A model generated the notes under the pieces. That model worked only from the letters and a program-made list of their open reading frames with translations. It had not been told where the DNA came from and did not search any database. A stretch of 64,000 nucleotides of DNA, taken from positions 1 to 64,000 of IMG/VR virus record IMGVR_UViG_3300014158_000003; one strand, written 5' to 3'. This DNA comes from a virus. Positions 4,126 to 56,511 of the stretch are shown piece by piece (the stretch's first letter is position 1; each line of letters begins with the position of its first letter). A program made the translations under genes and the position numbers.

Positions 4126-5687
4126 TGCGCATCACTCAGGCAGACATCGACCGAGTCAACCTGGAGCGGCTGCGGCCGATGATGGCCGGCGAGGAGTTCG
4201 TCTTGACCAAGGAGCCCTACCGGCTGCTCGCCCACCTGTCCACGCAGGTGTCCGGGACGGTCTTCGACCTCGGCACGTGGCGCGGCAACTCCGCGCTCGC
4301 CCTGTCCTACGGCGGCAACCCCGTCGAGTCGTTCGACGTCGCGGACCACACGCACGGGCAGCCGCACCCGCCGAACGTGCGCTACCACCTGGAGAACCTC
4401 TACACGCCCGAGGGGCGCGGACCTTGGAGGGAGCGGCTGCTCGCGAGCCCGCTCATCTTCATCGACACCGACCCGCACGAGGGGTCCTGGGAGTTCAACT
4501 TCGTCGAGTGGCTCCAGGCCGAGGGGTACCGCGGCCTCATCGTGCTCGACGACATCTGGTACTTCAAGCAGATGCGCGACAACCTCTGGTACCGGATCGA
4601 GGGGAGGCACAAGGCCGACGTCACGAAGTTCGGCCACTGGTCGGGCACCGGCCTGGTGTCGTTCGGCGATCTGCCTGAGGTCGAGGGGGAGGCGGACACG
4701 TCCAACTGGACGCTGGTCACCGGCTACTTCGACCTCACCAAGAAGGCGGACGCGAGCCCGGAGCTCTGCGCGCGACCGGCCAGCTACTTCCTCGACGCCC
4801 ACGGGTCCTCGGTGCTGTCCTGGGGGGCGAACCTCGTCGTCTACTGCGAGCCGGACAACGAGGCGAAGGTCTGGGGCATGCGGCCGAAGCACCTGCACGC
4901 GCGCACGCGCGTCATCGCGCAGTCGTTCGAGGACTTCCCGCTCACCAGACACCGCGACCGCATCATCCAGAATCGGGGCGGCAGCCCGTGGTGCCCCACT
5001 CACCCGCGGAGCACCGCCTCGTACTACCTCTTCTGCATGGCGCGCTACGCGATGCTCAAGCAGACGATCGCGAACAACCCGTTCGGTAGCACCCACTTCG
5101 CGTGGGTCAACGTCGACATCGAGCGGATGGGCTACCAGAACCTCGTCCACCTCGACGAGGCGCTCGCCGCGCAGCGCGAGAAGTTCTCGACCTGCTTCAT
5201 CGACTACGTGCCCGAGAGCACGGTGCGCGACTTGGACGCCTTCTTCGGCGGCAAGGCGTGCCTCGGACGCTGCACGATGTGCAGCGGGTTCTTCACGGGC
5301 AGCGCCGGGTACATGCGGGAGGTATGCGACCGGCTCGAGGCCAAGTTCCTCCACTGCCTCGACGCGGGTTACGGGCACTCCGACGAGCAGCTCTTCCCGA
5401 TGGTGTACTTCGACGCGCCGGAACTCTTCGACTGGTACCTGGGCGACTACGGCGAGATGGTGACCAACTACGCGCGCGTCTACGACCGGGCCGACCAGCC
5501 GATCGTCAATTTGATCCAGCACAGCCTCGACGCCGGCGACCTCGCGGTGTGCGCTCGGGCGTGCGACCTGCTCTGGCAGTCGTACGCGGCCGGCACGGTC
5601 GCGATCGGACAGCCGCACCTCGACCAGTTCCTGCGCGCCAGAGACCGCGTGTCGCCGCGCGACAACCCGAGGCGCAGGTCGCGATGA
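4125..5687 (+). CDS. Class I methyltransferase fused to WlaTC/HtrL-family glycosyltransferase
   Basis: N-terminal DLGTWRGNSALAL/IFIDTDPH/VLDDI; C-terminal TLVTGYFDL, NNPFGSTHFAWV, CSGFFTG, GHSDEQ. Confidence 0.75.
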   Translation: MRITQADIDRVNLERLRPMMAGEEFVLTKEPYRLLAHLSTQVSGTVFDLGTWRGNSALALSYGGNPVESFDVADHTHGQPHPPNVRYHLENLYTPEGRGPWRERLLASPLIFIDTDPHEGSWEFNFVEWLQAEGYRGLIVLDDIWYFKQMRDNLWYRIEGRHKADVTKFGHWSGTGLVSFGDLPEVEGEADTSNWTLVTGYFDLTKKADASPELCARPASYFLDAHGSSVLSWGANLVVYCEPDNEAKVWGMRPKHLHARTRVIAQSFEDFPLTRHRDRIIQNRGGSPWCPTHPRSTASYYLFCMARYAMLKQTIANNPFGSTHFAWVNVDIERMGYQNLVHLDEALAAQREKFSTCFIDYVPESTVRDLDAFFGGKACLGRCTMCSGFFTGSAGYMREVCDRLEAKFLHCLDAGYGHSDEQLFPMVYFDAPELFDWYLGDYGEMVTNYARVYDRADQPIVNLIQHSLDAGDLAVCARACDLLWQSYAAGTVAIGQPHLDQFLRARDRVSPRDNPRRRSR

Positions 5688-6776: not shown

Positions 6777-7660
6777 CCTCCCAACTCGAGCGACGAGCGC
6801 GGCAGCGGTGGGTCACGCGGCGGAAATTGACTTCCTATCCGATCCCACCGGGTGGACAAGGCGGGGGCGATCCGGTGTGCCAAGAAGCAGAGCGACCGTC
6901 CGGATCGTCCTCCACGCCGATCACGTACGTCGGCAGCGGGTCGCTGGGCGACTTCATCCACCAGCTCAGCGTGGTTAACGAGAAGTTCCTGACTACCGGC
7001 CGCCGGGGGCGCGTCTACCTCTCGGAGAGCGGCTTTCATTTCCGGTTCGGACTCGACCGCGCGTACGAGGACCTGCGGGAGATCGTGTCGGGACAGCCCT
7101 ACGTCGAGAGTTTCCACAAGCACGGCGGCGAGCCGGTCGACGTCAACTTGAGCGCGTGGAGGGGGTCGCCACTCATCTGCAGGGCGGACTGGCGCGCGAT
7201 CTACGAGGGCACCTACGGCGTGCCGTGGGGCTCGCGCAAGTGGCTGACGATGCCCGAGAGCGAGTACGCGGGCGCGATCCTGATCGGACTGTCCACGCGT
7301 CGGCAGCCGCAGGTGGACTGGGGGGTCCTGAAAGGACTGCCCGGACCCGCCACGTTCGTGACGGACGACGAGGGCGAACTCGCGAACTGGAAGGCGACGA
7401 CCGGGTCCGACCTGCCGACTCACCTCTTCCCGAGTCTCTACGAACTCTACCGGGCGATCCACGGCTGCCGGCTCTTCGTCGGCAACCTGTCCTCCCCCCT
7501 CGCGGTCGCGATGGCGGCGCACCGGCCGTCGATCGGCCTGCGCTGCCGCGAGGTCGACGACGTGCACGTCGTGGGCTTGGACAAGGTCTGGCCGCACTTC
7601 CGGTTCGCGGACGGCGACCTGGCGTCCGACCTGGCGGCGCTGTGGGGGGCGACCTCGTGA
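6773..7660 (+). CDS. GT9-like glycosyltransferase
   Basis: GSLGDFIHQL and AIHGCRLFVGNLSSPLAVA motifs; start position uncertain. Confidence 0.65.
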   Translation: MTSQLERRARQRWVTRRKLTSYPIPPGGQGGGDPVCQEAERPSGSSSTPITYVGSGSLGDFIHQLSVVNEKFLTTGRRGRVYLSESGFHFRFGLDRAYEDLREIVSGQPYVESFHKHGGEPVDVNLSAWRGSPLICRADWRAIYEGTYGVPWGSRKWLTMPESEYAGAILIGLSTRRQPQVDWGVLKGLPGPATFVTDDEGELANWKATTGSDLPTHLFPSLYELYRAIHGCRLFVGNLSSPLAVAMAAHRPSIGLRCREVDDVHVVGLDKVWPHFRFADGDLASDLAALWGATS

Positions 7661-10600
7661 TCGTCCTCGGCGTGCCGACTCTCACCCGCTACGACCTGCT
7701 CGACAGGCTATTCGAGTCCGCGGAGGGCGGCGCGCTCAAGCCCGACCGCTACCTCGTCGTCGACAACGGCGGAGAGTTCACCCCAACGCCGAGCGTGCTG
7801 CGGGCCCTGGCGCGCGGCGCGCGGGTGTCGGTGCTCGCCGCGGGCGAGAACCTCGGCGTCGCGGCGAGCTGGAACGCCATCCTGAGAGAGGCCGGTGGAC
7901 CGGTGGTCATCTCGAACGACGACGTCACGCTCGGCCCCGAGACGATCGCGCGCCTGTGCGGCGCAGACGGGGTCGGCCGGCACGCGTTCGTCATCGCCGA
8001 GGGGCCGCCGCACGCCAACGGCTGGTGCCTGTTCGCGCAGACTCCGGACTGCACCGGCCGGGTCGGCTACTACGACGACGGCTTCTACCCCGCGTACTAC
8101 GAGGACACCGACTACCACCGCCGGATGACGCTCGCGGGCGTCGAGGCGTTTCGCCTGCCGACCGACCACGCGCACGAGGGGTGGGCGACCATCAAGCGGG
8201 AGGGTCACGACGGACCGACGTACCGGGGACAGCAGAAGTGCCTCGAGTACTACGTGCGCAAGTGGGGCGGCGCGCCCGGCGCGGAGCGGTTCGAGCGACC
8301 GTTCGACGGCCGGGGCCCGGCCCTGCCGGCGGCGATCCCGCGCGCGGGCGCGTGGGTGGACGTCCACAGTGGATCGACCGGCCGGCCCGCGGGGTCGGCG
8401 GCGCGGCCGACCACGCGCTACGACGTCATCAACCGGGTCCTCGAGAAAATTGGGTCCGACCGCTACCTCGAGATCGGCGTCGGCAGCGGCGAGACGATGC
8501 GGCGGGTCCGCGCGTCCTTCAAGGTCGGCGTCGACCCGTCGCCGCACCCGGACGGGACCCGGGCGACCACCGAGTCCTTCGCGCTCGCGAGCGACGCGTT
8601 CTTCGCGCGCGGCGACGCGGTCGGCAGGTTCGGCGCGGCGTTCGTCGACGGGCTGCACCACGCCGACCAGGTGTACCGCGACATCGAGAACGCCTGCCGC
8701 GTGTCCGACGTCGTCGTCGTGCACAACGCGAGCCCGCCGACCGAGGCGATGCAGGTCGTCCCCTACCGCGGCGGGAACTGGACCGGGGACGTGTGGAAGG
8801 CGGTCGCGCGCGTGCGCGCCGAGGGGCAGCACGCGGTCCGGACGATCGACGCCGACTACGGCGTCGCCGTCGTCGTGCCCGACCGCGGCGAAGAGGTACC
8901 GGAGCTACCGCGCGAGGCGTGGGCAGACCTCGCGGCGCACCGCGCGGAGCTGCTCGGGCTCGTGGCACCGGACGCGTGGGAGGAGTGGTTCGACATGGCC
9001 AACAGGCGCGAGCGACTGGCAGCGCGGGCGACCCAGCGCAAGCTCGGGATCGAGCCCGGCAAGATCTGCCTCTGCATGATCGTCAAGAACGAGTCGGCCG
9101 TCATCGAGCGGTGCTTGGAGGCTGCGCTGCCGTTTATCGACTGCTGGGCCATCGCCGACACCGGGTCGACCGACGACACCCCGGCGAAGATCGAGCGGTT
9201 CTTCGCGGCGCGGGGCGTGCCCGGCAAGATCGGCAGGACGACGTTCAAGAACTTCTCCCAGGCGAGAAACGAGGCGCTCGCCCTCGCCAGGACGGTGCCC
9301 GGCTGGCACTACGCGCTGCTCATCGACGCGGACATGATCCTCTCCGGCACGCTCGACCGGGCGGCGCTCGCGGCCCCGGCGTACCTGCTCGTGCAGCGCA
9401 CGAGTGGCCTCGACTACTGGAACACGCGCCTGGTGCGCCGCGACGTGCCGGCCAAGTACGTGGGAGTGACCCACGAGTTTCTGTCGGTCGACAGTCCCGC
9501 GAACCTCGCGAGCCTCGCCATCGACGACCGGTGCGACGGCGGCGCGCGCGCGGACAAGTCCGACCGCGACATCCGCCTGCTCAGCGAGGACCTCGCCGAG
9601 AACCCCAAGAACTACCGGTCGATGTTCTACCTCGCGCAGACCTACCGCGAGGCGGGGCGGTTCCATGAGGCCATCCAGTGGTACCGCCGGCACGTGGAGC
9701 TCGCGACCTGGGACGAGGAGATCTGGGAGGCCCTCTACGGCATCGCGCAGTGCTACCGGGGCCTGGGCGACGAGCCCCAGATGACCAAGGCGTGCCTGGA
9801 GGCGTACAACGCCCGGCCGGGGCGGGGCGAGCCGCTCAAGCTGCTCGCGCAGCACCTGCGCGAGCGGGGCCAGAACGAGTCGGCTTGCCTCATCGCCGAG
9901 GCGATCCCGGACAGCACCGCGGACATCCTCTTCGTCGAGCGCGGCGTCTACGCGTGGGGGCGCGACGAGGAGCTCGCCATCGCCGGGTACTACAGCAAAT
10001 TTCCGGGCAGGCGAGAGGCTGCCGGGCAGGCGTGCGCGCGGCTGACGACGTGCGCGGACGCCGGCGTGCGCGAGCAGGCCCGCAAGAACTTCGTCCACTA
10101 CGTCAAGGGCGCGGGGGAGCTGTTCGGGGCCGAGGTGCGGCCGATCGACTGGGAACCGGGCGACGGCTACAGGCCGATGAACCCGAGCGTGTGTGTCGGG
10201 CCCGGGGGCCGGCGGCTCGTCCTGGTGCGGACCGTGAACTACACCGTGACCCAGGAGGGCCAGTACCCGACGCTCGACGGCAGCGGCATCATCCGGACGC
10301 GCAACCACGTGCTCGAGATGAGCGACAAATGGAGCCCGATCAAGTCGACTGAGATCCGCAACGACCCTGGACTGCCGGCGCGCAAGCTCGGGTTCGTCGA
10401 GGGCTACGAGGACTGCCGGCTGTGGTGGGGCGGCGACGGGTACCGCGCGTCGTGCACGGTGCGCGACGCGCCGGACGGCGACGGCCGCTGCGAGCTGGCG
10501 GTCGTGACCCTCGACGCGGCGTGGTCCGTCACGGCGGTCGACGAGGTCCGCGACTACGAGCACGACCGGCCCCAGAAGAACTGGATGCCGATCGTCGGCC

Positions 10601-11001
10601 GGCCGGGGCAGTTCGTGTACCTCTGCGACCCGACGGTCGTCGTCGAGCGCAGCCAGGGCGCGACCCGGGAAGTCGCGCGATCGGTGCCGGCCGCGCGGCT
10701 CGCGGACTTGCGCGGCGGCTCGCAGCTCGTCGCGCACGGTGGTGGCTGGCTCGCCGTCACCCACGAGGTCGCGTGGTGCCCGCACCGCGTCTACCTGCAC
10801 CGGTTCGTGCGCTTCGACGCCGACTTCCGAGCGACCGCCGCCAGCGACCCCTTCTACTTCGTCGCGAAGGGGATCGAGTTCTGCGCGGGTCTCGCCCGCG
10901 ACGGGGGCAAGCTCGTGGCGAGCTTCGGCGTGAACGACGCGTCGGCGCACCTGGCCTTCTTCGACCCGGCGGCGGTGGACCGCGCGCTGCGGTCGTGGTG
11001 A
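7657..11001 (+). CDS. Multidomain glycosylation protein: GT2 + methyltransferase + GT2 + TPR + beta-propeller-like C-terminus
   Basis: ISNDD/YYEDTDY; YLEIGV/FVDGLH; ICLCMIVKNE/DTGSTD/LIDAD; FYLAQTY TPR; NPS/GYEDCRL/KNWMP/RGGSQ/IEFCAGL. Confidence 0.8.
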   Translation: MIVLGVPTLTRYDLLDRLFESAEGGALKPDRYLVVDNGGEFTPTPSVLRALARGARVSVLAAGENLGVAASWNAILREAGGPVVISNDDVTLGPETIARLCGADGVGRHAFVIAEGPPHANGWCLFAQTPDCTGRVGYYDDGFYPAYYEDTDYHRRMTLAGVEAFRLPTDHAHEGWATIKREGHDGPTYRGQQKCLEYYVRKWGGAPGAERFERPFDGRGPALPAAIPRAGAWVDVHSGSTGRPAGSAARPTTRYDVINRVLEKIGSDRYLEIGVGSGETMRRVRASFKVGVDPSPHPDGTRATTESFALASDAFFARGDAVGRFGAAFVDGLHHADQVYRDIENACRVSDVVVVHNASPPTEAMQVVPYRGGNWTGDVWKAVARVRAEGQHAVRTIDADYGVAVVVPDRGEEVPELPREAWADLAAHRAELLGLVAPDAWEEWFDMANRRERLAARATQRKLGIEPGKICLCMIVKNESAVIERCLEAALPFIDCWAIADTGSTDDTPAKIERFFAARGVPGKIGRTTFKNFSQARNEALALARTVPGWHYALLIDADMILSGTLDRAALAAPAYLLVQRTSGLDYWNTRLVRRDVPAKYVGVTHEFLSVDSPANLASLAIDDRCDGGARADKSDRDIRLLSEDLAENPKNYRSMFYLAQTYREAGRFHEAIQWYRRHVELATWDEEIWEALYGIAQCYRGLGDEPQMTKACLEAYNARPGRGEPLKLLAQHLRERGQNESACLIAEAIPDSTADILFVERGVYAWGRDEELAIAGYYSKFPGRREAAGQACARLTTCADAGVREQARKNFVHYVKGAGELFGAEVRPIDWEPGDGYRPMNPSVCVGPGGRRLVLVRTVNYTVTQEGQYPTLDGSGIIRTRNHVLEMSDKWSPIKSTEIRNDPGLPARKLGFVEGYEDCRLWWGGDGYRASCTVRDAPDGDGRCELAVVTLDAAWSVTAVDEVRDYEHDRPQKNWMPIVGRPGQFVYLCDPTVVVERSQGATREVARSVPAARLADLRGGSQLVAHGGGWLAVTHEVAWCPHRVYLHRFVRFDADFRATAASDPFYFVAKGIEFCAGLARDGGKLVASFGVNDASAHLAFFDPAAVDRALRSW

Positions 11002-12352: not shown

Positions 12353-12356
<4 letters not shown>
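11685..12356 (+). CDS. Lipoprotein with acidic DAG-rich linker and Cys-rich C-terminal domain
   Basis: Signal peptide with LSGC lipobox; leaderless ATG 6 nt after the -10 box. Confidence 0.75.
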
Positions 12357-17851
<5,495 letters not shown>

Positions 17852-18029
17852 TGCTTCCCTCGAACGCTTCTCTTGTCGCGAGACCTCCGAGGCGGCCCGC
17901 GCGGCCCCTCGCCTTCGAGGGGGGATCATACTCCCGATCGCGGGCGGCCCTCGTGAATTGTGCTTGCTGTCCCCGGGGGTCGAGATTCAGCGCGTTACCG
18001 CGCGCGGAAAGGCGCGTACGCTCGACGGG

Positions 18030-18404
18030 ATGGAAGTCCTAGTCGTCGAAGACGACCCCCTGCAGCGCGGGGCGATCGTCCAGGCGCTCGAGAATATGGG
18101 TCACCACGTGTGCTGGGCGGAGACCGGCGAGGGGGCGCTCGAATTGCTGCGCACCGAGCCGGTCGACGTCGTGCTCCTCGACCTCGACCTCGGCCCCGGG
18201 ATCGACGGCTGGGAGGTCGCCCGGCGCAAGCTGGCCACGCCCAAAGTGGCCCATGTCCCGGTCATCGTCGTGACGGGTCGCCCCCTCGGCGAAGTGCACG
18301 AGCAGGCCAAGAACCCGCTCGCCGGGGCCATGCTGGTCCTGGGCAAACCGACCGACCTCGTGCTCCTCGAGCGCGCGCTCGATCTGGTCGCCCGGGGCGG
18401 TTAG
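18030..18404 (+). CDS. Stand-alone CheY-like response regulator receiver
   Basis: VLVVEDD, VLLDLDL (phospho-Asp), DGWE, PVIVVTG, KP motifs. Confidence 0.9.
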   Translation: MEVLVVEDDPLQRGAIVQALENMGHHVCWAETGEGALELLRTEPVDVVLLDLDLGPGIDGWEVARRKLATPKVAHVPVIVVTGRPLGEVHEQAKNPLAGAMLVLGKPTDLVLLERALDLVARGG

Positions 18405-19279
18405 CGCCGACGCTGGGGAGGTCGTTGCTGCGACTTCGGTGCCCCCCGACTCTCCACGCGAGACGACCGTCGAGCCTCCGCCGTCCTCTGCCAGCCGCGC
18501 GCGAGGTAGTCGTCGATGGCCTGCTCGCCGGCGGGCAGTCGGCCGACGATCGCGCGGTCGCCCGGGGCCTGCCCGTGCCAGTAGCCGCCCTGCCTCCAGA
18601 CCTTCGCCTGCTCGTACTCGCCGTCGCTCGTCGGGTAGTAGATCGTCGTGTTGGCCCCGGCGACCCTCACGTGCGTGGCGCCGCCCTCGCGTCGGGCGTG
18701 CTCGATGATCTCGGGCAAGGTCGAGAAGTCGGCGACCTGGTGACCGCTCGGGCGGCGGTGGGCAGTCGGTCGGCGCGCCTCGCGGGCCAGCTTCGACTTG
18801 ACCGCGCCCCGCAGCTCTTCACCCTGCTGCAGCACCTCGTCGGTTAGCCACGCGACGGTGCTCGGGCTCTTCAGCGCCTCGACGAAGCTGTCGAAAAACG
18901 CGCTCGTGACGTCCCGCTCCGTGATCCCGTACGTGTCCCTCACCCACGAGGCGCTGCCGCTCTCGAACACACCCTTCGCGCCGCTCAAGTCGAGCACCTC
19001 GCGCGCACCCATCTGCCGCTTGGTGTCCCACTCGAGCTGCTGGAGCATGTTCCTGGCGGCCCGCTTCGCGCCCGCCGGGGTGTCATTCGGGAAGACGCTG
19101 CTCGGGTCGGTCGCGCGCATCCGCTCGGCCTCGACGAGTTGCTCCCAGACCCAGTCGTGGAAATGATCCCCGCCGACCTGCTCCATCGCGTAGTCGGCGC
19201 CGGCCTTGGCGGCGGCTTCGAGGATCTGCGCGCCCTCTTCTTTCGGAGAGGGTTCGCGGTTGGCCTTCTTGCGGGGCAT
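18401..19279 (-). CDS. Two-domain hypothetical protein with basic linkers
   Basis: Coupled to upstream ORF (TGATG); phage-like composition. Confidence 0.7.
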   Translation of the reverse strand: MPRKKANREPSPKEEGAQILEAAAKAGADYAMEQVGGDHFHDWVWEQLVEAERMRATDPSSVFPNDTPAGAKRAARNMLQQLEWDTKRQMGAREVLDLSGAKGVFESGSASWVRDTYGITERDVTSAFFDSFVEALKSPSTVAWLTDEVLQQGEELRGAVKSKLAREARRPTAHRRPSGHQVADFSTLPEIIEHARREGGATHVRVAGANTTIYYPTSDGEYEQAKVWRQGGYWHGQAPGDRAIVGRLPAGEQAIDDYLARGWQRTAEARRSSRVESRGAPKSQQRPPQRRR

Positions 19280-20031
19280 CAGCGGCTCCTCGGGGGGCGG
19301 CGTGCGGGTGCTGGTTCCAGTTCCCAGTCGTAGAGCGAGTTCGGGAACGGTTTGCCGCTCTCGTCGGCGAGGTCATAGAGCGCGCTGCCGGCGTCCGAAT
19401 CGAAGCCAGGGTGGTCTGCGCGACTGGTGGAGACGTGAGTGACGACCAGTACCTGCCCACGGTATCGCTCGCCGTAGTTCTCGAGTGCATCGTCGCTCAT
19501 CTGCACGCGACTGCCGACGCGGAACCGCTTGGCGAGGCGCTCGCGCAAGAATGGATTTCGGTGATGAGGTGGGTGACGAGATGTCGGTGCGCGAACGGAC
19601 GACCGACGCCGCGCCGCCTCACTCACCGCACCGCGCGCCGGCTCCTCGCCCACCGCGTAGATGACCCCGTCGTCGCCGACGTAGAGCTCGAAGTCGCCGT
19701 ACGACTTCGCCGCCTCGTACAGCTCGTCGTCGTGCTTCGGGAAGTTGCCGTCGCCGAACCCGGCGCCGTGGCCGTTCCTCTTGAGCCAGAAGTCGTGCCC
19801 GGCGAGCTCCCAGCGCCCCCACTTCTCGATCGCTTTCGAGTCGTCGTCCTCGATGAGCGAGCCGAAGCGCCGCTGGAAGTCGGCGCAGTCCCGGACGATC
19901 GCCGCCATCGTCTTCGCGTCGATGTCGCTCCGGTCGTAGTTCGCGTCGAGCGGCTCATCGTCGTCGTCGGACGTGCTCCAGAGCGCCGCCTCGATGTACG
20001 CGCGCGTGAAGGGGTCGAGTCTCGTCGCCAT
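19279..20031 (-). CDS. Conserved phage-type protein (GHDFWL.RNGHGAGF domain + SH3-like domain)
   Basis: FTRAYIEAALWS...AGHDFWLKRNGHGAGF; C-terminal FRVGSRV...SLYDWEL. Confidence 0.7.
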   Translation of the reverse strand: MATRLDPFTRAYIEAALWSTSDDDDEPLDANYDRSDIDAKTMAAIVRDCADFQRRFGSLIEDDDSKAIEKWGRWELAGHDFWLKRNGHGAGFGDGNFPKHDDELYEAAKSYGDFELYVGDDGVIYAVGEEPARGAVSEAARRRSSVRAPTSRHPPHHRNPFLRERLAKRFRVGSRVQMSDDALENYGERYRGQVLVVTHVSTSRADHPGFDSDAGSALYDLADESGKPFPNSLYDWELEPAPARRPPRSR

Positions 20032-20603
20032 CACTTCCTCCCGGGCCGGCGGTGGTCGCGGGCGACTGGGCGGCGTGTGCCGCGCAGGGTCGGCCGCGGG
20101 CGGCGCTTGCTGGCCTCGCTGGGCACCCACGGCACCCCGGGGCCCCAGTTGCCCGGCTTGGCGCGCGCGGGGTACTCGCGCACGCGGCGGCGCTCCTCCA
20201 CGACCCGGACGTCCTCCGCGTCCATCTGGTCGCGCACGTCGCGCTCGAGGGTCGCGAACGCGAGCGCCGCCCAGTTGACGTTCCCGTCGGTCAGGGGCGC
20301 CTCGCCGTACTCCTCGAAGTACGCGTCGTGGTGGTCACTGCAAAGGAGGACCTGGAAGTTCGCGTGCGTGTAGATGACCCAGTACGAGCCGTCGACCTCC
20401 TGGTGGACGGCGTCGTTCAGGGCGTCCTCGCTGGCGATCTCGCCCGACTTGACGCGCGCCTTGAGGTCTTCAGTGATCCCGCGGACGCCGCCGTAATACT
20501 CCTGGCGCAGGACGCGCATCGCGTCGTCGTGCTGCTGTTCCGGGTCGATGCGCGGCTCGGGGCGGGCGGGCGGGGTGCGGCGGGGCTTGGTCTTGCTGGG
20601 CAT
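20031..20603 (-). CDS. Ocr (T7 gp0.3)-like acidic protein
   Basis: LKARVKSGEIASEDALNDAVHQEVD..FEEYGEAP resembles Ocr [33 protein letters not shown] (from memory). Confidence 0.5.
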   Translation of the reverse strand: MPSKTKPRRTPPARPEPRIDPEQQHDDAMRVLRQEYYGGVRGITEDLKARVKSGEIASEDALNDAVHQEVDGSYWVIYTHANFQVLLCSDHHDAYFEEYGEAPLTDGNVNWAALAFATLERDVRDQMDAEDVRVVEERRRVREYPARAKPGNWGPGVPWVPSEASKRRPRPTLRGTRRPVARDHRRPGRK

Positions 20604-20620
20604 CTTGAAGTCTCCGTTCC

Positions 20621-21871
20621 TCAATGTTTTGTCGGCATCACGTACGCGACCCCGTCGATGACGTAACCGCCCTTGACGACGCCGCCGATCTGCCGAGCGA
20701 CGCGCGCCATCGCGTCTTTACCGATGGACGCGTCCACGACGCGTGCGTCATCACGACGGGAAGACATCGCGAAGAACCAGAACTGAGCGCGATTGCCGCG
20801 GGCGTGCGCGACCGCGTCCGGCAACATGGCGTGGGCGCGCGCACCTCTGGCTAGGAGCTGATCGACGACACTCTGAGGTTCGCGGACTCGCGACCGTCGC
20901 GACTCCTCGGTTCGAGCGGCACCGCGACGCTTCGCCCACGTGCTCGTGTCGCCGGAGGTGCCCCATGGGATCTCTTTCTGCCACCAGTCGAGCGTCTGGG
21001 CGATCTCCATGACTGTCTCTTCGGGCAGCTCCAATTGCTTGGCGACGGCGTGGACGACGTGCTCGCCGGACACCTCCTCCTCGGTGGTCGGCACGCGGCC
21101 GCCGAAGTCCGTGAGCTCGTAACCGTTCTTCTCGAGCCAGCCTTCGAGTTGCCGAACGCCGACCTCGTTCCAGAGCTTCGGGTGTTTGCCCGGCTTGATG
21201 CCGAGCGCCTGCTCCCAGCCCCTATCGACGAGGACGTCCCCGTTGACCGCCACCGCGTCGCCGAACCGCGCGATGCAGACCGCCGAGTCGGGGTCGTACC
21301 CGTCGGCCGCGATGTCGCTCAGGAGGGCGTCGCCGAGCGTGCTCCACGCCTGCGCGCCGCTGTCGTCGGCCATCCGCTCGACAGTCTCCTCGAGCGCGGA
21401 GACGATGCCGCTCTTGCCGCCGAGGTCCGCGTCGTACCGCTCCTCGGTCTCGAGCCGGGTGAGCACGAGCGGGTACTGGTCGAACTCGTGCCAGCCGTAG
21501 TGGCCGGCCCACGTTTCGTACGCGTACGCACGCTCCAGCGGATCATTACTCACGAACGCGGCCGCGAGTTCGTCCGGATCCTGATCCGTGGTCCTTGCCA
21601 CGTCTTTGATGTCGCCCCAGCTCGGCACTTCCGGGTCGAGGTCCACCCGGTAGATGGTCCAGCGCGCGTCCGGGTCGTCGAACTCGAGGTCGTCCGGCGG
21701 GATCTCGACGTACTCGACGAAGCAGTCGCCGTAGATGTCCTTCTGCTCGCCGGACTTCGGCTTCCGGCAGTAGATCGGACCGCCGTCGTACTCCGGAAAG
21801 TTCACGTCGCCGACGTCGCCGATCTGCTCGAGTTCGGGACCGTCGTCGGCTGCGACTCGGTGGCGCGTCAC
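20621..21871 (-). CDS. Acidic multidomain hypothetical protein
   Basis: GTG at 21871 after GGAGGG; strongly D/E-rich. Confidence 0.7.
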   Translation of the reverse strand: MTRHRVAADDGPELEQIGDVGDVNFPEYDGGPIYCRKPKSGEQKDIYGDCFVEYVEIPPDDLEFDDPDARWTIYRVDLDPEVPSWGDIKDVARTTDQDPDELAAAFVSNDPLERAYAYETWAGHYGWHEFDQYPLVLTRLETEERYDADLGGKSGIVSALEETVERMADDSGAQAWSTLGDALLSDIAADGYDPDSAVCIARFGDAVAVNGDVLVDRGWEQALGIKPGKHPKLWNEVGVRQLEGWLEKNGYELTDFGGRVPTTEEEVSGEHVVHAVAKQLELPEETVMEIAQTLDWWQKEIPWGTSGDTSTWAKRRGAARTEESRRSRVREPQSVVDQLLARGARAHAMLPDAVAHARGNRAQFWFFAMSSRRDDARVVDASIGKDAMARVARQIGGVVKGGYVIDGVAYVMPTKH

Positions 21872-22146
21872 GGTACCCTCCCCACCGGATTGACGGTGAT
21901 CTCGAACCGCTCGAAGACGCTCGCCTCGGGGTCCTCGTTGTACTCGTCGACGGCGTCGTCTCCGCCGTACCACTCGGCGCCCTCCTCGCTCCAGATGAGC
22001 ACGTCGAGGTTGACGGGCCGGCCGTCGGACGCCCCGACCGAGACGGCGAGGCCGGCTGCCTCGTCGAACGTCTTGAAGGTTCGCTCCTTGCCGCCCGCGT
22101 CCTCGACCGCGAACTCGACGTCGTCATGCGTCTCTTTGCGCGCCAT
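21868..22146 (-). CDS. Small acidic hypothetical protein
   Basis: Coupled ORF; D/E-rich. Confidence 0.7.
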   Translation of the reverse strand: MARKETHDDVEFAVEDAGGKERTFKTFDEAAGLAVSVGASDGRPVNLDVLIWSEEGAEWYGGDDAVDEYNEDPEASVFERFEITVNPVGRVP

Positions 22147-22979
22147 CAGTTGACCCTCCAGTAAACGAGACCCCCGTCGGTCGTGTACGAGTTCCCGTCA
22201 TAGGACGACAGGAAGTGCGCCGGCCCGTCCACGCTCACCGCCTCCTCGGCGGCGGCGTCGACGTCGATGCCGGCGATCTCGATGGCCCTCTTGACGGCGT
22301 CCTCCTTGCCGTAGATCCCTTCGAGGTACTCCATCGGGTCCTTGAGTTCGGCCTCGGTCAGGCTGGCGGCGAGCGTCTCGATGTCCGAGTCCTCGGGCTC
22401 AGCCGGCTCGGTGGAGTAGCTGAAGTCGCCCTCGTCGTAGTCCTCGTCCGTGTTCGCCGCGACCGCGTCGTGCTTCCAGTCCTCACCCGCGTCGATGGCC
22501 TCCGACTCCGACGCGAACGTCCCAGCCAGCGTCCCCTCACCGTCCGGGCTGTCCCACTCGACGACCCACTTCTCGTCCATCCCGTCGCGCGATGCCTCTT
22601 TCCAGAAGTCCTCGGGGGTCTCGTCGCGCAATCGTTCTTCGTTACTATTTTGAACGTCGCTCTCGAGGTCGCTACGCAACCTGTCCGTGTCGATGTGCGA
22701 CTCGATGAAGTTCGGCTCGAAGATCTCGGGCTGCTCTTCGAGGTCCTGCTTGACGATGGCGATGGCGAGGTCGCGCTCCGCGTCCTCGTTCTCGACCACC
22801 TGCCACTCTTTGCGACCACCACGGGTGGTGATCTCGTAGACCGTCGCGACGCCGAAGCTCGACTGTCCGCGCGCCTCCCCGATCGACAGCTCGTCCGGGT
22901 CGATGTCGAGCGCCTTGGCGACGTCCGCGAGGACCGCGTCCTCGTCGTCGAAGTCGACCTTCTTCTTGCGGGTGGCCAT
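22146..22979 (-). CDS. Highly acidic protein, ArdA-like C-terminus (putative DNA mimic)
   Basis: Very D/E-rich; ends IDVDAAAEEAVSVDGPAHFLSSYDG...GLVYWRVN. Confidence 0.55.
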   Translation of the reverse strand: MATRKKKVDFDDEDAVLADVAKALDIDPDELSIGEARGQSSFGVATVYEITTRGGRKEWQVVENEDAERDLAIAIVKQDLEEQPEIFEPNFIESHIDTDRLRSDLESDVQNSNEERLRDETPEDFWKEASRDGMDEKWVVEWDSPDGEGTLAGTFASESEAIDAGEDWKHDAVAANTDEDYDEGDFSYSTEPAEPEDSDIETLAASLTEAELKDPMEYLEGIYGKEDAVKRAIEIAGIDVDAAAEEAVSVDGPAHFLSSYDGNSYTTDGGLVYWRVN

Positions 22980-23680
22980 CAGACCCAGCTCCTCTCGATC
23001 GTGTACTCAACCTTGACGACCTTGCCGCGCTTGACCTCCGGCGTGACCGCGAGGAGATCGACGTTGCCGTGGTCGTTCACGTGGAAGACGTTCGGGAAGA
23101 AGTTCTGGTCGTTCGCCTTCTGCAGGCCCGCGATGAGAGCAGCGTCGAAGTTGCTGAACGACCCGAGGCTCTTGCCCCCCAGGGACATCGAGTATTTCCC
23201 GCCGCGCGCGTCCTTGATGATGAGGGCGTCTTCCATCTCGCTCTCGAGGTCAAAGTCGTCCTCCTCTTCCTCCTCTTCTTCCTCCTCTTCCTCCTCTTCC
23301 TCTTCTTCTTCCTCCTCCGCGGTGTCGGCCTCGATCGCCGCCCACGCCTCGTCAGCCTTCGCCTCGTCCTCGTACCAGTCGGCCTCGACGATGCCGTCCG
23401 ACCGCTCGAAGAAGATGACGGCGACGCTGTCATCGAGCAGCTCTCGCTCGTCCTCGGTGAGTTCGTCCTTGTTCTCGGCGGCGACCGCCGCGACGCGCTC
23501 GCGCGTCGGCGCGTCGAGCCGCACCAGGCCGTACCAGCCCTCCCCCTCGCCGTAGCTCGCCTCCTCGTCGACGCCGTCGCCGGCGACCTCGAAGGCGAAG
23601 CTGTCGATGAGCGTGTGGAACTTGCCCGGCCCGTAGGACCGGATGCCGTCGTCGCCCGTCTCGCGCACGATCCTCGTCAT
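22979..23680 (-). CDS. Acidic protein with 19-Glu tract
   Basis: GGAGGA-like RBS; poly-E encoded at 23261-23317. Confidence 0.7.
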   Translation of the reverse strand: MTRIVRETGDDGIRSYGPGKFHTLIDSFAFEVAGDGVDEEASYGEGEGWYGLVRLDAPTRERVAAVAAENKDELTEDERELLDDSVAVIFFERSDGIVEADWYEDEAKADEAWAAIEADTAEEEEEEEEEEEEEEEEEEEDDFDLESEMEDALIIKDARGGKYSMSLGGKSLGSFSNFDAALIAGLQKANDQNFFPNVFHVNDHGNVDLLAVTPEVKRGKVVKVEYTIERSWV

Positions 23681-23692
23681 CGCATTCCTCCG

Positions 23693-23908
23693 TCAGAACC
23701 CGATCCTGCTCACGTCAGTCAGTTGCGCGTCTTCGATGGTGAAGTCGATTTCCTCATCGTCTTCGATGCTATCGACCGCGTCCACGATGGCGTCCTGGAT
23801 GGTGCCCGCATCGAGTGCTGCCTCTACGGCATCGCGCGCGCGACTCACGTCAGGTCCGCTCACGTCGAACTCCACCGTGATCCGTAGTTTCTTAGGACCT
23901 TTCGCCAT
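23693..23908 (-). CDS. Small acidic hypothetical protein
   Basis: MAKGPKKLRITVEFDV...; coupled to upstream stop. Confidence 0.6.
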   Translation of the reverse strand: MAKGPKKLRITVEFDVSGPDVSRARDAVEAALDAGTIQDAIVDAVDSIEDDEEIDFTIEDAQLTDVSRIGF

Positions 23909-24306
23909 CACGCCTCCCACTCGATCAGCGGCTTGATCACCTTCTTGTCGCCGACCGGCACCTGCGACGTCGAGACCCCGACCGCCTTCAGGATCTCGCG
24001 CAGGGCGTCGTACTCTTGGAGAGCCGCGTCCTCGACGTAGTCCTCCCCCGAGTCGCTCTCGACGCCCCAGAGCCCGCCGCTCGTCAGCGTCTGGGTGACG
24101 CCCTCGACGACGACCTGGGCCTCGGCGCGCACGCCGACGAACGAGAAGTCGCCGCGCTCGTACGCCTCGCGGCGGGCCCGGTCCTGATCCCGGTACAAGT
24201 ACGACGGGTCCGGGTCCTCGTCGTGCATGACGCGCACGCGGATCGACTGCAGCTCGGGCCTGTGCCGGCTCGGCGGGACATCGACGACTCGCTTGCGAGC
24301 GCCCAT
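23908..24306 (-). CDS. Phage-type hypothetical protein
   Basis: FSFVGVRAEA...SGGLWGVESDS motif; start uncertain. Confidence 0.6.
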   Translation of the reverse strand: MGARKRVVDVPPSRHRPELQSIRVRVMHDEDPDPSYLYRDQDRARREAYERGDFSFVGVRAEAQVVVEGVTQTLTSGGLWGVESDSGEDYVEDAALQEYDALREILKAVGVSTSQVPVGDKKVIKPLIEWEA

Positions 24307-24385: not shown

Positions 24386-24610
24386 TCACGCCCCGACGCG
24401 GTCGATCGCGAGCTTGGTGACCAGCATCGCGCCCGAGCCCGCGAGTAGGGCGCCCCAAGTCGGGGCCCGCAGGGTGTACGCCAGGAGCCCCGCCGCCGCG
24501 CCGGTCATCACCGCGGCGAGGATGGGGGTGGCGGCGGGGCCCGGGGCGTCCCCCACTCGGCCGAGTGCGAACCCGGCCACCGACCTGCCCCCGCGCGAGA
24601 CGTGCTCCAT
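24386..24610 (-). CDS. Small 2-TM protein with shared N-terminal tag
   Basis: MEHVSRGGRSVAGFALG then two hydrophobic helices; extended -10 TGgTAGTCT 6 nt before ATG. Confidence 0.7.
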   Translation of the reverse strand: MEHVSRGGRSVAGFALGRVGDAPGPAATPILAAVMTGAAAGLLAYTLRAPTWGALLAGSGAMLVTKLAIDRVGA

Positions 24611-24641: not shown

Positions 24642-25256
24642 TCACTCGCGCGGCAGCGTGGCGCGGGCCACTTCGGCGGCGATCTGCCGGGCGACCGCCA
24701 GCCGGTGCTGCGTCTTGACGAGCGCCGCGTCGCACCGGCCGCTCTCGACGGCCGCGAGCTCGGTGCCCTCGGGATTGTCCGCGCACCACACGCTCCGGGC
24801 CAGCCGGAGCCACCGGCGCGTGGCGAGCGAGGGGTCGCACGCCTGGTAGCGGTCGGTGTGGGCGATGGAGAGCTGCAGGTACCCCCAGCTCCTGCCGCTG
24901 TCGCCGCGCGCGCACCGGTGGTTGCCCGTCTCCCACGCCCCGTGCACGGCGATGAGCGCCATGGTCAGCGCGCGGCTCTGGTAGAGCGGGTCCATCCCGT
25001 TGACGGCGCCCACGATGGCGACGGCGATCTCGCGCGCGTCGCCGATGCGATCGTAGTGGCCGGCAGGAGGCTCGCTGGCCTGCCGGGCCAGCTCCCTCGG
25101 AGTGAGTTCGCGCTCCGGGACCCGAGCCATCGCGGCGAGCACCTCGTCCACGGTCACGAGGTCCGCCGCCGGCGGCGACGCGTGGGCGGGCGTCCGCCCG
25201 ACGAGCGTCATGGTGACCAGTACAGCGGCTTGAACGAGCGATTGTTTCAGGTTCAT
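24642..25256 (-). CDS. Secreted lysozyme/SLT-like protein
   Basis: Signal peptide ending AHA; WETG...GDSGRSWGYLQL lytic-transglycosylase-like motif. Confidence 0.6.
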   Translation of the reverse strand: MNLKQSLVQAAVLVTMTLVGRTPAHASPPAADLVTVDEVLAAMARVPERELTPRELARQASEPPAGHYDRIGDAREIAVAIVGAVNGMDPLYQSRALTMALIAVHGAWETGNHRCARGDSGRSWGYLQLSIAHTDRYQACDPSLATRRWLRLARSVWCADNPEGTELAAVESGRCDAALVKTQHRLAVARQIAAEVARATLPRE

Positions 25257-25313: not shown

Positions 25314-25598
25314 ATGCCGGACGTCCCGCTCGCCGACACGTGCGTCTGCGGGGTCCCGCACTGGCACAAGTTCATCGCTCCCTCCGAGAAGCTGGCCAAG
25401 GGCGGCTCGGGCTCGATGTCCGCCGCGACGCCGTTTCTCTGGTGCCGCAAGTGCGGGTGCCTTCGCTTCATGCTCGAGTCGCACTGGCAGGTGCCGCTCG
25501 ACCGCGCGGGCGACGTCGCGCACTCGGTGCCGCTCAGCGAGGAGCCCGACGAGCCGCCGACGAGTCCGGGCACCCCGGGCGCGAAGGGGCGCCGCTAG
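25314..25598 (+). CDS. Small Zn-binding hypothetical protein
   Basis: CVC...H and CRKCGC motifs. Confidence 0.55.
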   Translation: MPDVPLADTCVCGVPHWHKFIAPSEKLAKGGSGSMSAATPFLWCRKCGCLRFMLESHWQVPLDRAGDVAHSVPLSEEPDEPPTSPGTPGAKGRR

Positions 25599-26308
25599 CC
25601 GACGGGCAGCGGGACGTACGTCGCCGGGTACCATAGGCGCGCGCGGTCGTCGCCGGCGGCCACGACCGCCGCCGCGTTCTGCAGCATCAGCACCTCGCCG
25701 AGGTCGCGCGCGACGATCCCCGGGTTGACCTTCTCCTCGTGCGCGCTGGCCTCGCGCACCAGGTCCGCGGCCGCCGAGAAGTCCGGCGGGTCCGCGGCGA
25801 ATAGCGCCTTGAACGCCGCGCCGTAGCCGACGCCCGCGGCGGTTTTACCGATCTTGTCCCACACGTTCGCGAAGTAGCTGCCCCACGCCCAGGCCGAGGA
25901 CAGCAACATCAGCTGCGCGTCGGCCGGCAGCGTCGGGGCGCCCGGGTACTGCGCGACCAGGTACCCCCAGTCCTCGGCGACCGTCTGGTCGATGAGCCCC
26001 GTGATGGCCGCCGCGGTCAGCCGGATCGTCGTGAGCTTGGCGCACGCGGTCGACTGCACGCCCGGCCACGCGGCCTTGACGAGCGCGTACGCGGCGTCGA
26101 CTTCTGCCTTCGTGCACGGCGACCCATTCTCAGGGTGGTACCAGGCGAGGGCGTCGGCGGCGGCCGCGGAGAAGAGCGCGTTGCCGGTCGCGCAGGTCAC
26201 GACACCTTTGATGTCCGTGTACATGTATGGCAAACGCTGGCCTTCGAATTTGGCGAAGAGCACCGGCAACTGGTCGACGACCTCCTGCTGCAAGCCGGTG
26301 ACGATCAT
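25595..26308 (-). CDS. Phage lysozyme (GH24-like), soluble
   Basis: FEGQRLPYMYTDIKGVVTCATG = E-x8-D-x5-T triad pattern. Confidence 0.75.
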   Translation of the reverse strand: MIVTGLQQEVVDQLPVLFAKFEGQRLPYMYTDIKGVVTCATGNALFSAAAADALAWYHPENGSPCTKAEVDAAYALVKAAWPGVQSTACAKLTTIRLTAAAITGLIDQTVAEDWGYLVAQYPGAPTLPADAQLMLLSSAWAWGSYFANVWDKIGKTAAGVGYGAAFKALFAADPPDFSAAADLVREASAHEEKVNPGIVARDLGEVLMLQNAAAVVAAGDDRARLWYPATYVPLPVG

Positions 26309-31976: not shown

Positions 31977-32582
31977 TCACCAGTCCGGCAGCTCGGGCGG
32001 ATCGTTCCGAAGCTGGGCGACCAGGTAGAACTCGATGAGCCGCTGCAAGTCGGACACGTCGACGACCCCCGATGACCAAGCTCGGTCGGCTGCTTCTAGC
32101 GCCCGGTAGTACGCGCGCGGCGCGTACTTCATCCTCTGCGGCACCGGACGCTCTCCGGGGAGCTCTCTGCCTAGCCGCTGGCTCATGACCAGGTACGAAA
32201 CCGCCCGCGCGGTGCGCCCGTTGCCGTCGTCGAACGGGTGGATCCACGCCAATCGCCACATGATGAACGCCGCTGCAAAGAGGGCGTCATTCGAGCCGTT
32301 GACGTAATTGCACGCCTCCTGCGTCAGGCGAGGCAAGTCTTCGTGTGGAGGTGGTACGTGGCTGGACCCGAAGATCTCGACGTCGTCGCTCGTGCGCCAT
32401 CGGCCGGCGCTAGGGAGGATATCTCTCATTGCAGCCTGGTGGAGGCTGAGGGTCATTCGCGGGGTCAGCGTTTGATGCGCAGGCGACCGCACCCACCGCT
32501 GCACCATGCGTAACTGAGCTAGACCGCCCTCAGCCTCGAGAATCTCCGACTCGCTCTCGTCGTCGTCGAACCCCCACCCCAT
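31977..32582 (-). CDS. fic: Fic-family AMPylase
   Basis: Canonical HPFDDGNGRTAR motif. Confidence 0.9.
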   Translation of the reverse strand: MGWGFDDDESESEILEAEGGLAQLRMVQRWVRSPAHQTLTPRMTLSLHQAAMRDILPSAGRWRTSDDVEIFGSSHVPPPHEDLPRLTQEACNYVNGSNDALFAAAFIMWRLAWIHPFDDGNGRTARAVSYLVMSQRLGRELPGERPVPQRMKYAPRAYYRALEAADRAWSSGVVDVSDLQRLIEFYLVAQLRNDPPELPDW

Positions 32583-34516: not shown

Positions 34517-34905
34517 AGTTCGAACCACGCCGCGGTCAAGCCATCGGCCGCATCGTCATCAAGCCGTCGCGATCGTCCATCCTCAGGCCGGATCAGACCA
34601 AGGGGATCTCGAAGTTCGTGATCCTCGACGCGGTCGGTCCCGATCTCCTGGCCAAGGGCTTGAAGGTGGGTGACGTCATCGTTCCGCGGGCGGTCGGCAA
34701 CGTCATGATGGACGACGGCGCCTCGTTCCGGCCGACCGTCAACGAGGAGGACATCTTGCTCGTCGTGCGCGACTGGTCGAGCCTCGACGAGTTTCACGTG
34801 CAGGTCGACAACGGCACGAGGTACGTGCCCTTCAGCGACGCGCTGGCCGCCAAGTCGCTCGGAGCGATCAGCGAGGCGCAGGACGCCAACTCGGCGGCGG
34901 CATGA
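34513..34905 (+). CDS. groES: Divergent GroES-like co-chaperonin
   Basis: KFEP....., SSILRPD mobile loop, AVGPD...LKVGDVI, VNEEDILLVV. Confidence 0.6.
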   Translation: MKFEPRRGQAIGRIVIKPSRSSILRPDQTKGISKFVILDAVGPDLLAKGLKVGDVIVPRAVGNVMMDDGASFRPTVNEEDILLVVRDWSSLDEFHVQVDNGTRYVPFSDALAAKSLGAISEAQDANSAAA

Positions 34906-35597
34906 GCCGGATCGTCAGCGCGTACGACCCGACGGCGGTCGCCCGACTGCTCCAGCGCAGCGGCGGGTGCGGCTGTCGCGAGCCCGCAGCCGCGCGCGTC
35001 GTCGCCGAGCACACGGTGCGGTCGTCGCGCCGGCGCCGGGTGAGAGACGACGCGCACGAGAACGCGCTCGCCGACGCCGGAGCCGACCCGGTCGTCCTCG
35101 GCGCGGGCAACGGGTCGAAGTGTCGGCCGTTCTTGATGGTCCACAAGGATCCAGAGAGGTTCGCCGCGTGCAACGCGCTCGCCGACTCGATCGGGCCGCT
35201 CGACACACCGAAGAAGGCGTTCAAGTTGATCCACGAAGCCATCGGCGACGAGGTCAACGAGGTCTTCGGGATCGTCACGCTCGACCTGCACCTGCGCATG
35301 AAGAGCGTGGCCGAGACGGGTCGCGGCGAGCCGGCCGCCGTGCTGGCGCCCATGGTCCCGACGCTGCAGGCGGCACTCATCGACGGCGCGCATGCCGTGG
35401 TTGTTTTTCATTGTCACCCCTCTGGGATAGAGGCAGAGCCGAGCGACGCGGACAAGGAGACGACCGAGGCGTTCGCGGACGCGTTCGACACCGTCGGTGT
35501 CGGTCTGCTCGACCACATCATCCTAGGAGGGTCCGTCGAGAAACCGTCCTACTTCAGTTTCTTGGAGGCGGGTCTCTTGCCCCCGCTGCCAGAGTAG
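34902..35597 (+). CDS. radC: RadC-like JAB domain protein
   Basis: E...HCHPSG...PSDAD...LLDHIILG. Confidence 0.85.
   Translation: MSRIVSAYDPTAVARLLQRSGGCGCREPAAARVVAEHTVRSSRRRRVRDDAHENALADAGADPVVLGAGNGSKCRPFLMVHKDPERFAACNALADSIGPLDTPKKAFKLIHEAIGDEVNEVFGIVTLDLHLRMKSVAETGRGEPAAVLAPMVPTLQAALIDGAHAVVVFHCHPSGIEAEPSDADKETTEAFADAFDTVGVGLLDHIILGGSVEKPSYFSFLEAGLLPPLPE

Positions 35598-53541: not shown

Positions 53542-56511
<2,970 letters not shown>

Follow-up and report, generated by a model that had tools for sequence, protein, structure and literature searches.

T7 Ocr (gp0.3, Pfam PF08684) is a DNA mimic that inhibits type I restriction-modification (R-M) and bacteriophage exclusion (BREX), and ArdA is a DNA-mimic anti-restriction protein of conjugative elements with the fold of an elongated chain of three small domains. 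Titles of entries in the Protein Data Bank (PDB) have Ocr bound to a type I methyltransferase, to BrxX/PglX, to RNA polymerase (6r9b) and to AriA. Ocr has so far been seen as an invention confined to the lineage of T7-like coliphages; its tblastn relatives among cultured phages occur in 572 records, which by organism and host tallies are almost all enterobacterial phages, and an earlier survey calls it phyletically limited (PMC5512222). In the same survey the P1 protein DarA is cleaved and packaged (PMC5512222), and according to another source the T4 internal proteins, which are injected, combine a terminal packaging signal with the inhibition of restriction enzymes (PMC12373910). A further study describes known anti-defence genes as clustered (PMC7648647). 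The locus compared here with these systems lies in a viral DNA of 64,000 nucleotides (the window), the first 64 kb of IMG/VR record IMGVR_UViG_3300014158_000003, a linear contig of 117,319 bp with a CheckV completeness of 100%. Between positions 18401 and 24306 its minus strand carries nine genes, numbered G1 to G9 in the order of transcription, which a sequence-only reading had taken for an operon of acidic DNA mimics and anti-defence proteins. One of them, G7, is a credible distant homologue of Ocr as judged from profile and fold comparisons.

The tight coupling claimed for the nine minus-strand open reading frames (ORFs) was borne out. The genes fill 18401–24306, and six of their eight junctions are overlaps, of 1 nt in five cases and of 4 nt in one, the remaining two being gaps of 12 and 17 nt. 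The gene starts are our own choice, each with a Shine–Dalgarno-like sequence upstream; a gene caller based on codon usage and trained on all 117,319 bp of the genome returned exactly the same nine among 154 genes. One could regard these frames as chance products of a high-GC genome, with acidity as a by-product of composition: 81 ORFs of at least 40 amino acids overlap the 11-kb stretch considered, and high-GC DNA is rich in long spurious ORFs. However, the caller picks exactly these frames, every one of the larger proteins has homologues, in tens to hundreds, that share conserved motifs, two proteins (G4 and G7) give confident models and the starts are preceded by Shine–Dalgarno-like sequences. 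Chance frames, which we credit with practically no likelihood, are already refuted by the homologue searches. Terminator-like sites show no excess (4 in comparison with 3.2 expected from shuffles). In Pfam, PHROGs and NCBIfam none of the nine proteins has a named function above cut-off; apart from ocr, the only Pfam row is PRP1_N on the acidic linker of G3 (E 0.072). A blastn search of the region against cultured phages gave a match limited to the GAG repeat (2% of the query), and hhalign found no paralogy among six operon families (at most 1.2%).

The claim that one of the proteins resembles Ocr is supported for G7 (20031..20603, minus strand, 190 amino acids) by profile–profile comparison, by fold search and by PDB sequence matches. 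Two PDB sequences match G7 at E≤10, and both are Ocr (E 0.076 and 0.081). The Pfam ocr model gives E 0.035 on the G7 protein and, over six frames of the whole genome, a single match, which lies inside G7 (15.9 bits, E 0.0014 for this one genome); at least 5 of the 120 G7 homologues listed carry a precomputed label of the newer model version PF08684.17. For the profile–profile comparison, the Ocr reference was made from eight annotated cultured-phage proteins (T7, SP6, VEc3, STP-SP3, phi1_066062, K1F, IME205 and MmP1). The G7 family (45 rows) aligned with it in hhalign at 91.8% probability (E 7.5e-7) over 91 columns, which places G7 residues 35–127 on Ocr residues 7–98 of 117. As controls, the same Ocr profile scored 0.1–0.4% against the families of G3, G4, G6, the G8 N-domain and G9 and against G1 and G5, and 5.6% against G2. 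Since these controls score at most 5.6%, the match to Ocr is not produced by acidity alone.

The AlphaFold 2 (AF2) model of G7 has a mean predicted local distance difference test score (pLDDT) of 79.9, with 87–98 in the core and 50–54 in the tail past residue 140. Its top PDB match in Foldseek is Ocr (1s7z; probability 0.98, E 0.23, template modelling (TM) score on the target 0.58, 27% identity). When the top chains from Foldseek were realigned with VIA-align, the first seven rows were all Ocr entries (Z 5.7–6.7), the next chain having Z 5.2, and against 48,161 representatives Ocr again took rank 1 (Z 6.3, root-mean-square deviation 5.1, 102 of 106 residues aligned, 21% identity). We regard this modelled fold as supportive, not decisive, Z values in this range being reached also by common helical arrangements. 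The protein consists of a basic N-tail (residues 1–19, net charge +5), an acidic all-helical core (residues 20–140, window 20184–20546, net −15) and an Arg-rich C-tail of 50 residues (141–190, window 20034–20183, net +12). The core is acidic in all 38 rows of the family (net −10 to −19). Residues 18–140 were predicted to form a symmetric homodimer with a score of 0.70, as compared with 0.01 for the best control, the contacts agreeing between runs at 100% and the partner having a pLDDT of at least 91; in calibration, 20 of 30 proteins solved as one-chain pairs attained this mark, as did 1 of 23 solved as single chains. The most conserved motif of the family, at about residues 79–87, belongs to the predicted interface, whose columns are better conserved than the rest of the core (0.84 versus 0.71, p=0.003).

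No match to G7 was found by tblastn among 50,697 cultured-phage records. Seven remoter relatives, on other viral contigs, are proteins of 108–159 amino acids with net charges of −10 to −28, none of the seven having an Arg-rich C-terminal tail, and the five shortest (108–129 amino acids, net −15 to −28) match Ocr itself in format. By analogy, G7 is probably an Ocr-family dimer that acts as a competitor for host enzymes that bind DNA. Such a dimer would fill the DNA-binding groove of DNA-recognising host enzymes, for example type I R-M or BREX methyltransferases, and its occupancy would block these defence enzymes. The anti-defence reading of the operon as a whole stands on G7 and is plausible on that footing; DNA mimicry, the targets and an anti-defence function are, for every member, inferences.

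Most of the nine proteins had been described as strongly rich in Asp and Glu (D/E). This holds for four of them, G2 to G5, and not for the other five. Ranked by net charge per residue, G3, G4, G5 and G2 take places 1–4 among the 154 proteins of the genome; they contain 25–29% D/E (genome median 12.5%) and have isoelectric points (pI) of 4.05–4.09. G6 (pI 4.6), G1 (pI 4.9) and G8 (pI 5.2) are moderately acidic, and G7 (pI 8.7) and G9 (pI 9.1) are net basic as whole proteins because their Arg-rich tails offset acidic cores. Short basic N-termini, also part of the earlier description, are indeed common, with at least two Lys or Arg (K/R) among residues 2–8 in 8 of the 9 operon proteins as compared with 47 of 145 others (Fisher p=0.0012, a figure that depends on the start codons that we chose). 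The most acidic protein of the genome is G3 (22979..23680, minus strand, 233 amino acids, 28.8% D/E), in which a conserved N-domain and a C-domain are joined by an acidic linker that does contain the 19 consecutive Glu noted earlier (residues 122–140, window 23261–23317). Its 108 homologues are full-length or, in many cases, N-domain only; the linker is D/E-rich in all and variable in length, and the G3 profile has no credible match in the PDB. G5 (21868..22146, minus strand, 92 amino acids, 25% D/E) is likewise very acidic and well conserved in related phages (63–78% identity), without a family match in Pfam, PHROGs or NCBIfam. G2 (23693..23908, minus strand, 71 amino acids, 25% D/E, pI 4.05), whose start overlaps the G1 stop by 1 nt, has no family above noise in the same three collections, and no orthologue of it was seen in related viral loci. 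Acidity by itself is no evidence of mimicry; by charge and neighbourhood, G2 to G5 might be put forward as tentative candidates for decoys or inhibitors.

The remaining structural claim, an ArdA-like end, was presumably meant for G4 (22146..22979, minus strand, 277 amino acids, net charge −52, N-terminus MATRKKK), and no test gave it support. The ArdA Pfam model (PF07275) brought up nothing in any of the six frames of the genome at E≤10 and no match among the nine operon proteins at E≤0.1. ArdA was absent from the PDB sequence matches of G4 and of its profile, G4 alone matching nothing at E≤10, and no ArdA row was among those listed by Foldseek or among the top 50 of the wide VIA-align search with the G4 model. 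A tblastn search of 72,556 plasmids returned no match at E≤1. The single ArdA domain used in hhalign came from a bacterium of the same phylum as the metagenome-assembled genome (MAG) that bears the lone cellular relative of G4 (L021); it gave a probability of 0.8% for G4 and at most 0.9% for six families. G4 instead represents an orphan family with 369 homologues at E≤0.01, a mean column identity of 54% in the family alignment and a uniform acidity (mean net charge per residue −0.18); residues 136–195 (window 22395–22574) form an insert carried by a minority of the aligned homologues. Two related contigs have tandem duplicated genes of this family (L035:6384–7762 and L036:5106–6484), the second copy being 29% identical to G4.

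The AF2 model of G4 is confident (pLDDT 90.9, predicted TM score 0.69). Foldseek found no PDB match at E≤0.001 (top row probability 0.13, none listed above 0.33) and VIA-align none among 48,161 chains at Z≥8, the best being Z 6.0 over 52 residues. That best chain, T4 endonuclease VII, is too weak a match to suggest a fold, as are kinase N-lobes (about 85 residues, Z 5–5.7). The best PDB match of the G4 profile, gasdermin-B (E 0.1), falls on an acidic low-complexity stretch. G4 has a confident model for which the search of the PDB with the whole model gave no clear solved counterpart; novelty of the fold is not claimed.

The other four genes encode less acidic proteins. G1 (23908..24306, minus strand, 132 amino acids, N-terminus MGARKR) belongs to an orphan family, with a weak match to phrog_5644 (E 0.0023), a family of unknown function; in 17 related viral loci the cassette starts with an orthologue of G1. 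G6 (20621..21871, minus strand, 416 amino acids) has three domains, A (residues 1–150), B (151–318) and C (341–416), the last preceded by an Arg-rich linker (319–340). Its 430 representatives at E≤0.001 match single domains, which are found alone or in other combinations, and among the multidomain homologues 34 of 35 have no Pfam family at E≤0.001, the other one having a sub-threshold WXG100 match. At least 2 of 150 listed proteins are fusions across genes, one joining the G9 N-domain to G6 C and one joining G6 A to the G3 C-domain. A match of the G6 profile to a metallo-beta-lactamase (43 columns, E 0.023) was judged to be chance, and the ESM Atlas held no usable match for G6.

G8 (19279..20031, minus strand, 250 amino acids) is made of an N-domain, an Arg-rich linker, a small C-domain and an Arg-rich end. 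The N-domain (residues 1–135) matches phrog_1915 (E 7.4e-23) and the C-domain phrog_34111 (E 1.8e-10), both of unknown function. Among cultured phages, 157 records contain the N-domain, with Mycobacterium, Caulobacter, Klebsiella, Serratia and Erwinia among the hosts, and all 25 matches listed are annotated as hypothetical; the profile of the domain has no match in the PDB. The N-domain also lies inside annotated terminal repeats of jumbo Caulobacter phages (for example MZ574430.2, 22708–23091). In the ESM Atlas, G8 resembles viral hypothetical proteins at TM 0.9, in unnamed clusters only, and its C-domain has a weak Chromo/Tudor-like resemblance (TM <0.5). G9 (18401..19279, minus strand, 292 amino acids, N-terminus MPRKK) has an N-domain, an Arg-rich linker (residues 166–182), a C-domain and an Arg-rich tail (263–292), and in relatives its two domains are separate genes in swapped order. 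A match of the G9 profile to the C-terminal domain of alanyl-tRNA synthetase (E 0.0036) crosses the Arg-rich linker and is a weak lead on which we do not rely.

The cassette recurs in the order G1-G3-G4-(G5)-G6B-(G7)-G8N-G9C-G9N, where N and C stand for N- and C-domains and B for the middle domain of G6, in 40-odd viral loci of IMG/VR with protein identities of 40–70%, the best-preserved related contigs being about 110–125 kb long. Gene content varies: G2, G4, G5, G6 and G7 are each missing from some loci that keep the remaining genes. A search of one genome each from 185,579 bacterial and archaeal species found a G4 relative at a single locus, on a 13-kb contig of a Polyangiaceae MAG. Because this is one locus only across so many species, the operon families are by this search essentially phage-only.

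Metagenomes of wetlands, fresh water and lakes contain near-identical DNA (17 studies with 20 runs, three of which may be the source of the present DNA). In a freshwater run (X6), a contig joins position 20604 to 22726, and the segment 20605..22725 is replaced by 160 other letters, which takes away all of G6, all of G5 and G4 from about residue 85 to its end. The flanks agree with the window at 1 difference in 392 bases (20213–20604) and 15 differences in 433 bases (22726–23158), and the junction is covered by 255 letters on its shorter side; a second run has the same joint with 29 letters only and was not counted. Sequencing depth over 20672–22005 is low in runs X6, X9 and X11. The joined contig indicates a close strain without G6, G5 and most of G4.

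The locus fits a counter-defence island in being an accessory, fast-shuffling, phage-only cassette. Such clusters hold at least one recognised anti-defence gene, which here would be G7 as a distant homologue of Ocr, and their gene content differs between related elements, as it does here. Of the anti-defence island proposed by the sequence-only reading there remain the credible Ocr homologue and the accessory, shuffling cassette of phages, whereas the other eight proteins have no detectable similarity to support it and the ArdA assignment is unsupported. We put at about even the chances that the nine genes are a translationally coupled accessory operon serving counter-defence or host takeover.

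A number of observations weigh against such a role or against the Ocr relationship on which it stands. G7 stays under the gathering cut-off of Pfam ocr (15–15.9 versus 25 bits), as does the best member of its family (P0013, 20.9 bits). At E≤0.1 the model is reached by 7 of 38 family members and by none of the seven small remote relatives, and sub-threshold matches also turn up in 3 of 14 control genomes. With a HMMER profile built from 38 members of the family, the match to the PDB became no better (E 0.83). The structural scores are modest (Foldseek E 0.23; VIA-align Z 6.3 as against 5.9 for an unrelated helical chain), and the dimer prediction may reflect the predictor's memory of solved Ocr dimers. 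The core of G7, at net −15, is less charged than all eight annotated Ocr proteins (−23 to −29), and the whole protein is net +2. For the eight other proteins no link to any known mimic or anti-defence family was detected. No signal points to a time of expression: no sigma-70-like promoter was found in the region, at most 4 of 59 upstream regions share any one 9-mer, and there are no RNA runs among the 20 metagenome runs listed. Finally, strong family conservation, as in G4 with its mean column identity of 54%, and a gene order kept across distant phages also fit a core function outside defence; an order kept at 40–70% protein identity is more conserved than in typical anti-defence islands.

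These last points lead to the view that the operon serves a conserved function in the phage life cycle unrelated to defence, with acidic proteins as assembly chaperones or scaffolds, or in the remodelling of the host nucleoid or of transcription. The Ocr-like domain would then be a general competitor of DNA, and Ocr itself also binds RNA polymerase, as the title of PDB 6r9b has it for the bacterial enzyme. In agreement with a life-cycle function, gene order is retained between phages that share 40–70% protein identity, the families are highly conserved with many invariant aromatic and His residues, their metagenome homologues number in the hundreds, and the operon is flanked by a collagen-like fibre gene on one side and by unassigned genes on the other, away from any recognisable early end. 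On the other hand, G2, G4, G5, G6 and G7 can each be missing while the rest is kept, the near-identical strain without G5, G6 and most of G4 argues against essential roles of those genes, and such shuffling of domains is, according to the survey, characteristic of conflict proteins (PMC5512222). We consider a life-cycle function fairly unlikely.

Another feature of the operon concerns the ends of its proteins. In G6 to G9, globular parts that are acidic or neutral lead into Arg-rich linkers or tails. At least five K/R among the last 15 residues are found in 6 of 6 orthologue frames of G6, 15 of 21 of G9, 7 of 13 of G8 and 7 of 15 of G7, compared with 1 of 11 for G1, 0 of 8 for G3, 0 of 6 for G5 and 2 of 24 for G4; these frames run from stop to stop and some merge neighbouring genes. 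Among the proteins of the genome outside the operon, 20 of 145 have K/R-rich C-terminal ends. The tails of orthologues of the G9 N-domain from different phages are nearly the same peptide, and since the domains to which they are attached are just 32–40% identical, this points to a common function of the tail, which might bind DNA, act in packaging or masking, or provide a junction for cleavage behind a conserved Glu. The motif E[AS]RR was considered as support for a cleavage site and set aside: it is also present in the Ala/Glu/Arg-rich structural-module proteins g052, g057 and g061, where it is probably compositional.

It follows the same lines to suppose that at least G6 to G9 are virion-internal cargo ejected with the DNA, like T4 Ip1-3 or P1 Dar. 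The Arg-rich C-tails may bind packaged DNA or constitute a packaging signal, clipped after a conserved Glu at E|ARR-like sites. Such a packaged cargo would be compatible with an anti-defence role and would alter when and how the proteins act. Non-homologous families ending in the same kind of C-terminal peptide, the basic stretch becoming a linker where domains are fused, the enrichment of basic N-termini and a head-maturation-protease-like protein encoded by the phage (phrog_11747/1684) are all in line with it. However, no similarity to any known packaged protein was found, the E[AS]RR motif is possibly compositional, much Arg is to be expected at high GC content, the basic N-termini might do no more than help translation, tails are absent from the small remote relatives of G7, and the stop-to-stop frames merge some neighbouring genes. 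Packaged cargo is in our estimate quite unlikely.

A still more specific proposal, which we offer as very doubtful, is that the cassette is a toolbox of at least ten unrecognised inhibitor domains built on one plan, an acidic globular head, a conserved junction of Glu-Ala-Arg-Arg type and an Arg-rich tail. The tail would tether the inhibitors, including the Ocr-like mimic, to phage DNA for packaging and delivery, or would mask the mimic until it is cleaved, and G4 would be a new mimic fold. If true, tethered or masked tails would be a new principle of delivery or regulation for DNA-mimic anti-defence proteins.

The genome around the operon, of 70% GC with 63–80% per 2-kb window, has no tRNAs in the window and no terminal repeat on the contig. 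Ordinary phage functions recognised elsewhere with Pfam and PHROGs include HNH endonucleases, a helicase, Sak4, an exonuclease, a DNA methyltransferase and the head-maturation-protease-like protein, together with RadC, Fic/DOC, GIY-YIG, an M23 peptidase, two collagen-repeat proteins and large glycosyltransferases; the majority of the genome's proteins have no family in either collection. Directly downstream of the operon on the same strand lies the gene of an 1832-aa protein of collagen-triple-helix repeats (12353–17851, minus strand, Pfam Collagen E 5.6e-76), with many internal joints in its repeats in metagenome contigs. It and a second such protein of 989 aa (53542–56511, plus strand, E 4.2e-22) are presumably fibres. 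Convergent with the operon is a gene for a stand-alone response-regulator receiver domain (18030–18404, plus strand; Pfam Response_reg E 1.5e-17 on the longer frame 17808–18404), the 3′ ends overlapping by 4 nt, and two related viral loci (L033 and L008) have homologues of it close to the cassette.

Just upstream of G1 lies the gene of a 74-aa Ala/Gly-rich protein, probably membrane-spanning (24386–24610, minus strand). The next genes upstream (24642–25256 and 25595–26308) have no family match in Pfam or in the PDB search, and with both searches empty a reading of them as lysozyme- or transglycosylase-like was dropped. Pfam identifies Fic/DOC (31977–32582, minus strand), RadC-like JAB (34902–35597, plus strand) and GIY-YIG (47626–48714, plus strand) domain proteins. 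Fic/DOC, JAB and GIY-YIG domains are frequent in conflict or injected proteins of phages and plasmids. Domains of this kind are discussed in the survey cited above (PMC5512222). A 1119-aa protein (7642–11001, plus strand) with two glycosyltransferase-like regions, a methyltransferase-like stretch and TPR repeats, and an HtrL/YibB-like protein assigned by Pfam (3360–5687), may modify a surface or the DNA. Outside the window, at genome positions 81125–83194 (minus strand), a 689-aa protein aligns along its whole length with phrog_1735 (E 1.4e-225), and its neighbour (80697–81104, minus strand) matches phrog_2018 (E 4.5e-36); both are widespread phage families without known function.

An Ocr-homologous family in large, high-GC freshwater phages, some of its members Arg-tailed, would widen the Ocr family, and the G7 family would add a system in which the tuning of DNA mimics can be tested. 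The orphan families next to it, with hundreds of members and no known domain, make up a compact and cloneable list of candidate new inhibitors of bacterial immunity. If the tails are a packaging or masking device, they would be relevant to the protection of large-phage DNA during the opening minutes of an infection.

In comparison with Ocr, the core of G7 aligns with Ocr residues 7–98, has Ocr as its best structural match and is an all-helical, acidic, predicted symmetric dimer. It differs in having about half the net charge, and in the disordered tails of G7, a basic N-tail and a 50-residue Arg-rich C-tail, which the Ocr proteins do not have; furthermore, G7 is inside a nine-gene operon of a 117-kb high-GC phage, whereas Ocr is the first gene in a T7-like phage. 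The sole likeness of G4 to ArdA is a strong negative charge (net −52, as compared with −25 over 158 residues for the ArdA domain used above); no sequence, profile or fold similarity between the two was found. The cargo systems, T4 Ip1-3 and P1 DarA/DarB as presented in PMC12373910 and PMC5512222, share with the operon that several small, unrelated, phage-only proteins are encoded together and have common terminal peptides, under the idea of inhibitors that enter along with the genome; the differences are that there is no homology and that the peptide of the operon is Arg-rich and C-terminal or in linkers. Compared with described anti-defence clusters, the operon contains neither an Aca-type regulator nor a known enzymatic effector domain, and its gene order is unusually stable across distant phages. 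It resembles those clusters and shuffled conflict proteins, as described in two sources (PMC7648647, PMC5512222), in that unrelated small genes surround one recognisable inhibitor, genes are variably present and domains are re-fused in relatives.

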